Positions 1-13,836 of a DNA stretch of 16,616 nucleotides are shown in pieces (position 1 is the first letter of the stretch; each line of letters begins with the position of its first letter). This DNA comes from an uncultured archaeon (GTDB lineage: Archaea; EX4484-52; JAADEF01): NCBI GenBank assembly GCA_964407715.1, contig CAYOWP010000016.1, forward strand, positions 1-16,616, in the 5' to 3' direction. The position numbers and the translations under genes were made by a program. The notes under the pieces are model-generated. The model made no database searches and was not told the origin of the DNA. It saw nothing but the letters and a program-made list of their open reading frames with translations.

Positions 1-3000
1 TGTTTGTTCCATAAATAGAGAGTCCAGTATGGAGCATATGGGGTGTGTGGGTAAGTAGCATTTAGTAATTGATATCCTATACCTCCATATTTTGCTAAAG
101 GATTATCACTTCCGCCAAAAGGAGAAAAAGCATGAAAAACTTTGAAACCTTGTAATGCTACCTCTTTTATCCCTACTGCAAAAGAAATTGCATTAAGTAG
201 TGCTATTGTTCTAGGATCTGTCCCATTACTGCCTCCAGATCCTAAATTATATTCTGTCCAAATTAAATCTAATGTTTTATTGAACTTTTGTTTGTATTTT
301 GAAGTTATAAGCTCAAAACTATATATTCCTTTTGGATATTCACTATGTGTTCTCACTTTTGCAAAGTTAATAAGTATTGGATCTGTTCTCCAATTATAAT
401 TACTGCTAATTATAGGATCTTCATTATTGTTAGGAGGATAGTATATATTATTAAAGTTGCTGCTATTATAAGGATACATGCACGTTCCATATTCTAAATA
501 CCCTCTAACAATATAAGTCTCAAATTCTACAGAGTTGTTGTAAATATAATCAAAGAAATATCCTTCTCCCGTCCACATCATATCTGCAAGATTTTCTATG
601 CCAAAGAATATATTTTTCCCTATTTTCATATCTTTTGGCAAAGATTTGTTAATTTTATTTCTTGTATAGTTATAAACCCTTATATATCCTAAAGCATCCT
701 TAAGATAAATATCATTTATTATTACGAGTATAATTTTAGTAACATTTAATTCTGTTATTGTGTGATTTACAATATCCCACACATATTGAGCATAATCTGT
801 TTCATTAGGTATACATGTACTTGAATCATATGGCATACCTGGAGGATAATTTGGTGGACAACCTCCTATATGTAATATTGGCGTTGCATTTAATGTTTTG
901 GTTATGTAATTTATGGCTTTATCATAATCAGACCAATCATAATGATTACATTTGTGAATAGTTGCATTCCAGAAATCACATGAATCTGATGGGAAATAGG
1001 TTGTTAAGTATCCTCCTGTAATTGCTTTAATTTTTTCAGGAGGTATTCCACCAAGTAAATTATCATTGGTAATATGATATAAACTTGTAGATAATCCTAC
1101 AGTCAAATTTGATATTCCTATAGGCTTTGTGTAATTCGCAACAAGATTCACTTTTACAGGATAGGATAAGGAGATATTGAAAGAGGTTGTTGAATTGGTT
1201 AAAGTTAAGTTAGAGCATAAATATGCATGAGTTAAATCTTTAAAGTTAAAACTCCAATTTGCTTTAGGATCAGGGATTATGTTCCAATATTTTGTTATGT
1301 TTGGATAATTAGATGTTCCCCAAGGGAAATAAAAGAATGAAGGATAGAGTATGTTTGTGCATAGGGTTATGTTTGGATATGTGTTGTTTATTAATATGTC
1401 TTTTGGTATTGTTAGGGTTATTGTGTAATTTATTTTATTATTGGAGGATGATTTTTGGTTTTTTATTTTTATTTGGTTTTTTATTGGGATTTTGTATTTT
1501 AGGAGTAGGGTTATGTTGGGTTCTGGTGGAGTTATGTTTAGTTGTCCTGTGGTTTGGTTATAGGATAAAGCAGAAAGATAATGTTGCTTTATTTCCTTAG
1601 GGGTTAAAGCAACATTATAGATTCTTAGATTATCTATTGCTCCTCTTAGATCTTTGCCTATTATTATATCTGTATCTGAAGTTGCTATCTTTGAGTTTAA
1701 GAGAGGATAAGTAGCAACTAATTTTCCGTTTATGTATAGGGAGAGATTGCCATATTTTGCTGTAAATACTATGTGATTCCATTTATGTAAATTAGATGAA
1801 TTGAATGGATATTCTATGAATACATAACTATCTCTGCTATATTGTTCTTCCTTTACTCCCATAAGTAGAGAATCTTCCCATCCATAACGCCATACTGTTA
1901 CCCATTTGTTTGAGATGTTTGCCTCGAGTCTGAGTTCATCTAGCCATGCATCTCCTGTGGAGTTTCTAAGACCAAACGAGGAAATTCTTATATATTTTGC
2001 ATCTGTAGGTACATCATATACAGGACTTATATTTTTTGACCAATCATAAGAATAATTTTTACAATAAGCAGGAGCTAAATGGAAATCAGGATAAGGTGGA
2101 GGTAAGATATTTCCCGTGGAGTTAAGAAATCTTGCTAGTAAAGTAAACCTTTTCCATCCTACTGTCGGATTGCATGTTATATTCTTTCCTTTAGACCATG
2201 CTACCCATCTTATTTGAGTTGCATTTTTTGGAAGTATAATTTTATTAACATTCCACAGACCATATAAAGGAGAGGAAGATGTTGAATTTATAAATTCTTC
2301 TGCATGAAATCTTACAGAACTATTTCCTATTATACCTTCTCCTCTCTCTATAGTTATATTGCAAGTTGAGCATAGAGGAGAAGAAGGCATATCAAAAATA
2401 ACATGCTCTTCGGTAATTGGTGTATTATCTTGAGGTCTATAAAGATAAAGGAAGTAGTCATCAGTATCTATAAGTTTGGCTGTTTGGTTAAATGCATCAG
2501 GTTTTAACCAAAATTCTATAGTAAGTTCTTGATTTGGATGTAGATAATTAGTATTCTCTATTTTAACATAGCCAGTTCCATTTAAAAGTAAAGCTTTATA
2601 TTGAACTCCTCTTGTATATGAAACATTATTTCCTATAACTTTATGTGGAGATAAAGAAGAATATGCCCCTCTATCTCGAAGAACATTATCAAATTTTAGA
2701 AATAAAACTGTATTTTGATTTGTGTAAATATCAGGACTTGTATCTATCACTGGGTACAAAGATTTGTACATATATTGAATTTCATAAGGGGTTAGAACTC
2801 GTGTATATATTCGGAAGTCATCAATACTAGTATTGTATCCTTTTCCGATATATAATGGATCTGTTAAATTGAGCTTTAATGGGAGATCAAATTCTCTTTT
2901 ATGCATTAATTTTCCATTAACATATATCAGAGAAACATTTCCATCATAAGTCCAGACAAGAAAATTCCATTTGTTATTAATCAGGTTAGATGTAGAAGCA

Positions 3001-3672
3001 CTATCACAAACCCTTCCTATAGGGGTATTAAAACATACTTGAAGAGCTTTATCTCCATATTTATCTGCCACATACCATCTCAAATCTTCTTGTGTATTAG
3101 GCCCTTTTCTATATGGACTTGCCCAAGGATTAAGCGGATAGTAGGGTTTCATCCAGAATGTTATAGAGATTTGTGTAATGTTTTCTATGGCTGATAAGGG
3201 TAAAGAAACATTAACACCACTTAGATCTGTTGTAAAATTCAATGCACATCCATGTATGCCAGGGACCCATTGAGGGTTATTTACTAAGGTTCCGTTATAT
3301 CCGTGACCTGATGTGTCATGTGCTATTGTACCTGAGCATTCATCAAACTTTAATGCTAATAGAGTAGAGTTATCATTATATATATCTGTGTCATTTACAT
3401 ATCTCCATACAGAGGGATAAACAGCTCCTGAAGGTAAAGTTAGCGTATAAGTTCCATTATAGTTTGTGAATGTTATGTTTTGAAGGATAGTTATGTAATT
3501 ATAGGAATCATCTTGTATTATTGGGATGTTTTCTTGGAATGTGGTGGAGAAATTTACATTTCCAGATGCATAAACGATAAAGAGAAATAGAAATATCGAG
3601 AGTAGAGAAAAAATTGTAACATAAATTTTAGTTATCTCTCTCTCTCTCTCTCTTCAGAGAGGTTTTTGGCAT
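1..3672 (-). CDS. Giant secreted/surface glycoprotein (signal peptide, 2x LamG/ConA-like, CBM-like insert, GH39/clan GH-A-like domain); 3'-truncated by window edge; frameshifted at a 5' (GA)n tract
   Basis: Manual translation: one minus frame is open from 3653 to the window edge (about 1,217 codons; absent from the ORF track because it has no stop in the window). It reads ITKIYVTIFSLLSIFLFLFIVYA-SGN (signal h-region), then LamG motifs LALKFDECSGTIAHDTSG, ISITFWMKP, KWNFLVWTYDG..LIYVNG, IDDFRIYTRVLTPYEI (~3370-2765). A second LamG set follows: LTIEFWLKP, KWNHIVFT..LSLYINGKLV, AIDNLRIYNVALTPKEI (~2715-1578). It ends with YDWSDYDKAI..PILHIG..IINDI..LIWTEYN (~1130-1). The ATG at 3672 is in a different frame and stops at TAA 3630-3628. 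Confidence 0.85.
1578..1618. repeat. Perfect 14-bp inverted repeat (hairpin) inside the giant gene
   Basis: ATAATGTTGCTTTA (1578-1591) and TAAAGCAACATTAT (1605-1618) are exact reverse complements with a 13-nt spacer. Confidence 0.8.
3635..3653 (-). repeat. (GA)9 dinucleotide simple sequence repeat in the signal-peptide coding region
   Basis: The + strand reads (TC)9T at 3635-3653. It is the only such microsatellite I saw in the window and lies between ATG 3672 and the signal-peptide h-region. Confidence 0.95.
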
Positions 3673-3696
3673 AAAAATATAATATATTGAAGGGAT

Positions 3697-3710
3697 TTAT
3701 ATAATTTTCT
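3697..3710 (-). promoter_or_regulatory. Archaeal BRE-TATA promoter for the giant surface-protein gene (probably leaderless)
   Basis: Minus strand AGAAAA-TTATATAA, with the TATA box 25-32 nt upstream of ATG 3672. Confidence 0.6.
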
Positions 3711-3740
3711 ATTATTTATTTAATTCTATTAAAATAGAAA

Positions 3741-4283
3741 GGGAGAGAGTTAATAAAAGGCATGCTGTCCTTCTCAAAGGGTTAGCTGCTCCAATATGCC
3801 TTTTGAGAGGGTATCTCTCCCCTTAACCATCTTTTATTTATCTTGAATAATATGGTTAACGCGAAGATATCGCTAACCTACTCGCATAGCAGCATGCTAA
3901 CCTGAAGAAAGGTTACCTGCTCACAAACGCTCAGAAAGGTTACCTGCTCCAATATGTCTTTTGAGAGGGTATTTCTCCCCTTAACCATTTTATTAAAAAT
4001 TGATTAACGGGAGAAAATCGCTTTATCAAGCACATAAGAGCATACTAACCTCTTTTCAGGTTAGCTGCTCACAAACGCTCAGAAAGGTTACCTGCTCCAA
4101 TATGTCTTTTGAGAGGGTATTTCTCCCCTTAACCATTTTATTAAAAATTGATTAACGGGAGAAAATCGCTTTATCAAGCACATAAGAGCATACTAACCTC
4201 TTTTCAGGTTAGCTGCTCACAAACGCTCAGAAAGGTTACCTGCTCCAATATGTCTTTTGAGAAGGTATGTCTCCCGGTTAACC
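3741..4283. repeat. Tandem array of four imperfect palindromic non-coding elements (A 3741-3830, B 3852-3988, C 4001-4136, D 4149-4283), including a perfect 148-bp tandem repeat
   Basis: 3917-4262 is an exact 148-bp-period repeat (2.3 copies). Units have self-complementary ends (ATGGTTAA/TTAACCAT in B; TTAAcGGGAGAAA/TTTCTCCCcTTAA in C), an inner stem GAGCAtaCTAACCT/AGGTTAGcTGCTC, and short AT-rich spacers. Confidence 0.9.
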
Positions 4284-13370: not shown

Positions 13371-13836
13371 TTATCCAAACAAAGCTCCTAATCCAGCAGC
13401 TGCCTCTTCTTCTGATTTCTTCTCTTCCTTTTTCTCTTCTTTCTTTTCCTCTGCTGGTTCTTTTGATTGAGTAGTTGAAGGTTGTGCAGCAGGAACAGGA
13501 GCAGAGATAGCCTGGCTCATAGCCTCGTCTATATTAACATTTTCTAATGCAGCAACTAATGCCTTCACTTTTGCATCATCAACCTTAACACCTGCTGCCT
13601 CCATAACCTTCTTTATGTTCTCCTCGTTTATCTCTTTTCCCGCCTTATGCAACAACAAAGCCGCATATATGTATTCCATGATCAACACCCCTTAATCATT
13701 TTAGCATGATTATCCAAACAAAGCTCCTAATCCAGCAGCTGCCTCTTCTTCTGATTTCTTCTCTTCCTTTTTCTCTTCTTTCTTTTCCTCTGCTGGTTCT
13801 TTTGATTGAGTAGTTGAAGGTTGTGCAGCAGGAACA
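13370..13836. repeat. 128-bp exact direct repeat (13370-13497 = 13709-13836) encoding the C-terminal tails of P1 and P0
   Basis: Base-by-base comparison shows no mismatch, including synonymous positions, over [41 protein letters not shown]. Confidence 0.95.
13371..13679 (-). CDS. rpl12: 50S ribosomal stalk protein P1 (archaeal L12)
   Basis: [30 protein letters not shown], acidic hinge and [13 protein letters not shown] tail; SD GGGGTG before ATG 13679. Confidence 0.97.

Follow-up and report, generated by a model that had tools for sequence, protein, structure and literature searches.

In Helicobacter pylori, outer-membrane protein genes such as oipA (hopH) and sabA carry CT/AG dinucleotide repeats in the region coding for the signal peptide, and these repeats switch expression; the opa genes of Neisseria have a CTCTT repeat. 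Here we describe a locus of similar design in an archaeon. It lies on the minus strand of a 16,616-nucleotide contig (GenBank CAYOWP010000016.1, assembly GCA_964407715.1), the whole of which was analysed and is called the window below. The window is contig C16 of a genome of 898,521 bp in 16 contigs (92% complete), best read from its small size and archaeal markers as that of a small-genome DPANN-type archaeon. As in the bacterial genes, a perfect repeat with a unit length not divisible by three stands a few codons after an ATG and before or within the signal peptide of a candidate surface adhesin, the repeat number sets the reading frame, and several paralogs each carry a putative switch. Unlike in the bacterial genes, the organism is an archaeon, the mRNA is probably leaderless, the predicted product is a LamG/GH39-like glycoprotein and not a beta-barrel porin, and the locus is known here from sequence alone. 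We hold with moderate confidence that the repeat acts, through strand slippage, as an on/off switch for a surface protein with which this DPANN-type archaeon binds a host or a glycan.

The coding region is a single stop-free frame of 1217 codons (3653..3, minus strand) that runs off the left end of the window, as a first-pass annotation of this DNA had described. That annotation also saw a signal peptide, and here its account held in part: the frame, the domains and the glycosylation sequons discussed below are real, but the segment resembling a signal peptide is joined to no start codon. The segment itself (ITKIYVTIFSLLSIFLFLFIVYASG, 3561..3635, minus strand, codons 7-31 of the open frame) was located by hydrophobicity, and residues 10-28 reach a Kyte-Doolittle value of 2.5 over 19 amino acids (aa). 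No in-frame ATG, GTG or TTG occurs in the first 137 codons; the first is TTG 3242 at codon 138, and a TGA (3656-3654) stands directly upstream of the open frame. The frame starts exactly at a perfect (AG)9A tract (3635..3653, (TC)9T on the plus strand) and encodes the signal-peptide-like segment at once, which we count in favour of a switch. The only good start is ATG 3672 (3672-3670), 19 bases upstream of the tract. As assembled it opens a frame of 14 codons (MPKTSLKRERERDN, 3628..3672, minus strand), closed by TAA 3630-3628, and is not in frame with the long open reading frame (ORF). The ATG and that ORF would share a frame if the tract had n = 7, 10 or 13 AG units. Adding one unit or removing two gives MPKTSLK(RE)n-ITKIYVTIFSLL..., that is, a normal charged n-region followed by a hydrophobic core. 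Two other ways of beginning or sorting the protein were considered and rejected. An alternative code with read-through of TGA 3656-3654 does not help, since the frame upstream of that codon contains no start codon, so that recoding gives no start; a pilin-type (class III) signal was dismissed by eye, since Lys-Ile and not Gly/Ala precedes the hydrophobic core.

Such tracts are exceptional in this genome. Across the 898 kb, dinucleotide repeats of 3 units occur 3460 times, of 4 units 331 times and of 5 units 28 times; there are none of 6 to 8 units and two of 9. Those two are the tract described here and a copy on contig C2, and they are the only repeats of at least 6 units. Homopolymers of at least 9 bases occupy five sites, none associated with the start of a long ORF. 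Among the mononucleotide runs, two identical segments on contig C7 (4181-4189 and 7576-7584) combine a strong Shine-Dalgarno (SD) motif, an ATG and an A9 run, with no long ORF following in any frame. As in contingency loci, the tract is a perfect repeat in the 5' coding part of the gene, with a unit that is not a multiple of three and a length far above the genome background, and its repeat number sets whether the start is in frame with an otherwise intact gene. No MutS was found in the 92%-complete genome, which likewise counts in favour of a switch.

The promoter region points to a leaderless transcript. A TATA-like box (ATTATATA, 3698..3705, minus strand) has its first base 33 nt upstream of ATG 3672, and no SD-like motif occurs from -25 to +60 of this ATG. 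In a survey of 476 ORF starts of this genome, TATA-like motifs were most frequent at -34..-28 relative to the ATG, whereas the maximum for SD-like motifs fell at -15..-9. The former peak indicates that the genome has a class of leaderless genes, and ATG 3672 sits on it. In the mechanism we propose, the TATA box at -33 would direct a leaderless mRNA that starts at ATG 3672; six codons after the ATG the repeat would be read as (Arg-Glu)n, and the signal peptide would come next. At the assembled length of n = 9, translation would end after 14 codons (OFF), and replication slippage adding one unit or removing two would restore the frame (ON). The product would be an exported, N-glycosylated protein in which the signal peptide is followed by two LamG domains, one of them interrupted by an additional module, then by a linker and finally by a GH39-like barrel for binding or cutting a glycan.

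The copy on contig C2 is a paralog (C2:3-3632, 1210 codons, 69% aa identity) that shares the promoter, ATG and tract. Neither long frame is broken; both have 32% G+C, with an overall ratio of nonsynonymous to synonymous divergence (dN/dS) of 0.27, which means that the two genes are not old pseudogenes. Their divergence is very uneven. A block covering the promoter, ATG, tract and first ~110 codons (3322..3717, minus strand) is 97-100% identical to C2, with a synonymous divergence (dS) of 0.027, and a linker block (1600-1263) is 98-100% identical with a dS of 0.014. The rest of the gene shows 41-88% DNA identity and a dS from 0.7 to saturated. Such a mosaic indicates that shared blocks have undergone gene conversion around diverging binding modules, with purifying selection on both copies. 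As in families under antigenic variation, near-identical blocks (here with dS 0.01-0.03) alternate with strongly diverged ones, but only two copies were seen here and no silent cassette archive. If the C2 copy bears the same switch in front of diverged binding domains, a population could switch two alternative surface proteins independently. C16 and C2 also begin with the same 55 bases (1..55 of the window), an assembly fork inside the 3' part of the gene. A third shared block at the 3' end thus broke the assembly, which is why the C-terminus is missing and why the frame continues beyond the window.

Large, sequon-rich LamG/ConA-like proteins of nanohaloarchaea, for example those of Ca. Nanohalobium constans, are predicted to serve in host attachment in the parts of PMC7443923 available to us, which bears out the first-pass statement that such proteins are proposed attachment factors. 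The protein described here resembles them as that source presents them, being large, presumably secreted, strain-specific and rich in LamG domains and N-glycosylation sites, and coming from a small-genome archaeon. The fusion to a GH39-like barrel, the insert nested in a LamG domain, the mosaic duplicate and the gating by a repeat have no counterpart in those parts of the text. Two LamG domains had been proposed, and both were recovered: scanned as a whole against Pfam, the protein matches Laminin_G_3 (PF13385) in three stretches at 136.4 bits (cut-off 27.6), and scanned in pieces it scores 60.4, 26.4 and 58.5 bits. The first domain spans ~aa 95-300 (2754..3371, minus strand); the profile match covers ~aa 150-293, and the start near aa 95 was placed by eye at the motif LLALKFDE. 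The second is divided into an N-terminal part (~aa 315-410, 2424..2711, with profile positions 2-55 at aa 357-410) and a C-terminal part (~aa 583-695, 1569..1907, with profile positions 77-151 at aa 620-690), both on the minus strand; the latter also matches a module of the arabinanase 5hon (expectation value, E, of 2.6e-4). The split of the profile matches implies that roughly 170-200 aa are nested inside this domain. The insert (~aa 411-582, 1908..2423, minus strand) is possibly CBM4/9-like. The first-pass annotation had suggested CBM_4_9, and the nearest named ESM Atlas clusters are indeed CBM_4_9 (PF02018), at a score of 0.85 that lies below the tool's reliable level of 0.9 and is a lead only. 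No Pfam family matched the insert at E<=10, and AlphaFold2 gave an unusable model of aa 340-700 from a 3-sequence alignment, with a predicted local distance difference test score (pLDDT) of 42. The linker (~aa 696-800, 1254..1568, minus strand) falls largely within the conserved block named above.

The remaining C-terminal region, earlier noted as glycosidase-like, was modelled by AlphaFold2 over 416 aa as a (beta/alpha)8 barrel (pLDDT 81, predicted template-modelling score 0.84, 39-sequence alignment). The barrel occupies aa 901-1217 (3..953, minus strand) and is cut at the contig end. Its best Foldseek matches are GH39 beta-xylosidases (E ~1e-7, template-modelling scores 0.52-0.59; top structures 8i0x, 6uqj, 4ekj and 2bfg), followed by GH79 enzymes, PslG and iduronidase. 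A profile built from 39 relatives retrieves GH39 structures with high significance (6uqj at 2.1e-20, 1px8 at 1.5e-19), and both catalytic motifs, N-E-P and T-E-x-N, fall in register with the 1px8 alignment. By its own sequence, aa 802-1217 matches no Pfam family at E<=10 and hence not PF01229 (Glyco_hydro_39). Relatives of the barrel are few, 42 among 1.84 billion representatives at E<=1e-3; PF01229 is matched by 16 of 43 scanned relatives at E<=0.01, six of them above the 26-bit cut-off. A search with an 11-sequence barrel alignment matched one genome, a metagenome-assembled genome of Candidatus Aenigmatarchaeota. The nucleophile position, Glu1134 (254-252, minus strand) in WTEYNLGS, is Glu in every one of the 38 sequences spanning this column and lines up with ITEYN of 1px8. 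The acid/base position, Asn980-Asp981 (716-711, minus strand) at the N-E-P site, has the residues N-D-I in this protein, N-D-L in its paralog and N-D-P in P0001, its closest relative, and N-E in 33 of the other 36 aligned sequences (N-N in one, R-T in two). Like GH39 enzymes (6uqj, 1px8/XynB and 4ekj), PslG and alpha-L-iduronidase, the protein thus presents a predicted clan GH-A (beta/alpha)8 barrel and keeps the nucleophile motif WTEYN. It differs from GH39 in having no Pfam match of its own, Asp for the acid/base Glu, no C-terminal beta-sandwich within the contig, and a barrel placed at the end of a lectin array; relatives extend 123-495 aa beyond the motif PYAPYW, and the gene here ends at the contig end. 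Judged by sequence and model, the GH39 assignment proposed earlier stands at the level of fold, superfamily and nucleophile, and membership of the family fails on one defining residue. The barrel may be a slow or altered enzyme, or a binder only. The lectin-plus-hydrolase fusion of the first-pass annotation therefore stands as an architecture of LamG domains and a GH39-like barrel, but the putative hydrolase carries Asp at its acid/base site and the gene as assembled is untranslatable from its ATG; the host, and S-layer glycans as its target, are conjecture.

Several features are consistent with export and glycosylation. The frame holds 52 N-x-S/T sequons (x not P), in line with the earlier manual count of about 50, whereas 2000 shuffles gave 17.2 +/- 3.7 with a maximum of 32. 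Sequon density is 4.27 per 100 aa, compared with 0.90 for 635 ORFs of the genome of at least 150 aa; densities of 3.9-5.7 per 100 aa are found in the genome's other listed large ORFs rich in sequons, which start with M and a hydrophobic segment. A gene for the AglB/STT3 oligosaccharyltransferase is present in the genome and could use these sequons. The scattered cysteines noted before number 15 in the frame. Surface location, glycosylation and a glycan ligand are what one would expect of such a protein, and a glycan- or host-binding role at the surface is the best reading of its domain content, its sequon load and the proposals made for similar DPANN proteins.

The arrangement recurs in related genomes. 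At order, class and phylum level the comparison set is one and the same group of 42 genomes. No ortholog was found in any of these, the same-genus genome G036 included; matches were at LamG level only. A search of the set for (AG)7 gave matches in eight genomes. Besides the C16 and C2 genes, four loci in three related genomes share the layout, with (AG)n between the ATG and the remainder of a gene for an exported protein. At G038:C40 the tract has n = 8 and is in frame, reading METQ(RE)SNNLK and then a hydrophobic core; the 1285-aa product contains LamG and Big_13 domains, carries 61 sequons and has a membrane anchor at its C-terminus. G037:C29 has n = 9, out of frame, with the leader MRTTSLTDTK... 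before an 869-aa LamG protein with 48 sequons, and at G037:C21, where n = 10, neither of the two upstream ATGs is in frame. G022:C31 (n = 9, tract 1523-1540, out of frame) has a lipoprotein-type signal (…ISGC) before an NMT1/THI5-type solute-binding protein, and AG repeats may thus control part of a transporter in addition to adhesin-like proteins. G037:C29 and G038:C40 share 33% identity over 470 aa, and both have a perfect tract followed by CAATAAT. The remaining (AG)n matches among the 42 genomes lie in untranslated regions, in in-frame internal (RE)n runs or on foreign-looking contigs. To the last group belong C136 and C152 of G036, short G+C-rich contigs of ~1 kb with (AG)7, (AG)18 and (AG)8, which do not show the layout and are unlike this A+T-rich lineage; they are probably bin contamination and were set aside.

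As a control we searched 371 Aenigmatarchaeota genomes and found (AG)8 at 10 loci in nine genomes, none of the 10 with this layout. Six of these loci (in G213, G222, G225, G230, G253 and G254) resemble one another in their flanks (…TTTCC.ATGGAG..CC before the tract), have exactly 8 units and lie outside long ORFs; they look like a conserved non-coding element and not a variable repeat. The leader motif of the genus designated g12, searched with one mismatch, gave 25 matches in the 42 genomes against 6 for the reversed control, and only three exact matches are real leaders. A further member of the g12 family, G037:C61, has a 575-codon LamG-family frame and no AG tract. In our reading of its sequence, an upstream ATG appears out of frame with the signal-peptide frame over an A7 run, and loss of one A would join them; the A7 run is too short to call a switch.

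A 2025 preprint (10.1101/2025.10.21.683753) treats contingency loci as known in archaea, and in the parts of it available to us the sole archaeal work cited for them dates from 1987 and, to judge by its title, deals with simple repetitive sequences in archaebacterial genomes. The accessible parts of PMC3315296 deal with repeat indels at gene termini in some Archaea, and a 2025 review (PMC11868660), as far as its available text goes, leaves the distribution of phase variation in archaea to future work. A full-text literature search, covering main texts and not supplements, yielded no account of an archaeal surface protein turned on and off by a repeat, and those papers containing both 'DPANN' and 'phase variation' that were examined, in the text available, describe no such switch. 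What this analysis chiefly adds to the first-pass annotation is a start gated by a repeat, a mosaic paralog and a layout that recurs within the phylum; the kind of switch and the class of DPANN surface protein are known. A wider proposal, which we put forward tentatively and with less assurance than the switch itself, is that this small DPANN phylum switches its host-contact glycoproteins and at least one solute-binding lipoprotein by AG-repeat contingency loci on leaderless mRNAs. Slipped-strand phase variation would then be a regular strategy in Archaea, and the present case would be a two-cassette locus in which gene conversion maintains an identical promoter, switch, linker and tail around lectin and glycosidase-like modules that have diverged.

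A number of points weigh against the switch. Variation in length has not been seen in this organism; n = 9 is the only value, and it comes from contigs. The public runs that contain the stretch are three hydrothermal-vent metagenomes, all of them represented as contigs, in which minority repeat lengths are not visible. The three loci in genus g12, with n = 8 (in frame), 9 and 10 in two other species, are paralogs and not orthologs of each other or of this gene, which means that their differing n shows tract length and frame to differ among family members and not one locus to be switching. The probable leaderless start is judged from the position of its motif. No in-frame N-terminus was recovered when the N-terminal 100 aa were compared with proteins of 55-175 aa in a collection of 5.8 billion clusters (0 matches). 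The C-terminus, with any anchor, is missing from the assembled gene, and the replacement of the acid/base Glu by Asp means that hydrolysis, the glycosidase part of the proposal, is not assured. Finally, both copies are OFF, and so are five of the six loci in the phylum; that share fits random phase, in which two thirds would be OFF, but it also fits inactivation or an unknown decoding mechanism.

Inactivation is the alternative that survives best, and we consider it unlikely. It holds that both copies were recently silenced by slippage in the repeat, a change that gene conversion spread between them, and that decay is under way with no adaptive switching. The preponderance of OFF loci would follow, as would the identical n of the two copies within a block homogenised by conversion, and the want of an ortholog in G036 and the rest of the 42 genomes suggests that the gene is dispensable. 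Against this, neither long frame carries a second lesion and dN/dS is low. Additional stops or frameshifts, which the first-pass annotation had named as a sign of decay, are absent from the 1217 codons, the contig end limiting the view. Perfect tracts persist in relatives at 33% identity, where an unselected repeat should gain interruptions, and a lesion that a single slip can reverse is by definition a contingency locus.

Slightly less probable still is a constitutive protein for which the tract is part of the 5' leader. Translation would then begin at an in-frame non-canonical codon, either ATA 3635 or ATT 3626, or ribosomes would re-initiate once past the leader ORF of 14 codons. Starting from the ATA, TK and the hydrophobic core would make a compact signal peptide, and the TAA of the leader ORF lies 2 nt before the in-frame ATT. 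However, no SD-like motif occurs near these codons, leaderless mRNAs are known to need a 5' AUG, G038:C40 clearly has an ATG from which the tract is read in frame as (RE)n, and the other listed sequon-rich ORFs of the genome start with M.

We also regard as improbable an error of assembly or sequencing, in which the true tract would be in frame (n = 10 or 7) and the gene simply ON. Repeats are error-prone, and the 5' block shared by the two paralogs complicates assembly. The aligned part of one contig of run X2 stops at 3623, adjoining the tract. But a dinucleotide run of 18-19 nt lies well inside the read length, and the only contig that spans the tract, from Logan's separate assembly of run X1 (possibly of the same reads), has n = 9 with no gap. 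The same kind of frame break is moreover present in independent assemblies of three other genomes. Programmed recoding, by ribosomal frameshifting or RNA-polymerase slippage on the AG run so that n = 9 DNA yields some in-frame product, is very improbable: most loci are out of frame and repetitive runs can promote slippage, as established for homopolymers, but the needed shift differs among loci (offsets 1, 2, 0, and 1 or 2), which does not fit one fixed programmed shift, no stimulatory element was seen, although no search was aimed at one, and to our knowledge slippage on dinucleotide runs is not an established recoding mechanism. A reversible switch driven by slippage in vivo is accordingly the reading we continue to prefer.

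Searches for further copies returned little. A full-length search of the protein collection gave eight matches, of which only P0001 is close (58% identity, a fragment), and residues 1060-1217 had 0 matches among its shorter proteins. This protein did not turn up in the collection, and three neighbouring genes of the same contig are present in it. In metagenome contigs, a protein-pattern scan gave 14 stretches with 0 relatives, and an exact scan with the 31 nt beside the tract gave 0 matches; neither yielded an additional copy, a different repeat number or the C-terminus.

The other genes of the window are archaeal housekeeping genes, coding for the ribosomal proteins P1, P0/L10, L1 and L11 and for Spt5, SerRS, GatB, SufBCD and a protein resembling thioredoxin reductase. 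A tRNA scan and Rfam at gathering thresholds found no match in the window. Between the surface-protein gene and the trxB-like gene lies a tandem array (3773-4283, period 148, 2.5 copies, 97% matches) whose unit belongs to a dispersed family with 116 BLAST matches in the 898-kb genome, often clustered and often near contig ends. A 15-nt repeat (3.3 copies) occurs at both 13403-13452 and 13742-13791, where the neighbouring genes for ribosomal P1 and P0/L10 have their 3' ends; it is the acidic C-terminal tail common to stalk proteins and is ordinary. Many contig ends of this genome carry 55-base overlaps (the 3' ends of C4 and C16; C1/C8/C9; C3/C8/C13), as left by an assembly graph with k=55, and the right end of the window is likewise at a fork, with C4. 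In run X2, one contig reaches past window position 1, and a loose end at window position 3364 consists of apparent library-adapter sequence, a technical artefact of that assembly.

Little is known of the means by which DPANN archaea, which live attached to other cells, recognise their hosts, hold on to them and release them. Two lectin/glycosidase-like surface proteins under the apparent control of a repeat offer concrete, testable candidates for this contact. Gene callers will truncate or drop genes with out-of-frame starts like this one. The putative switch suggests population-level bet-hedging in these organisms, as in bacterial pathogens.

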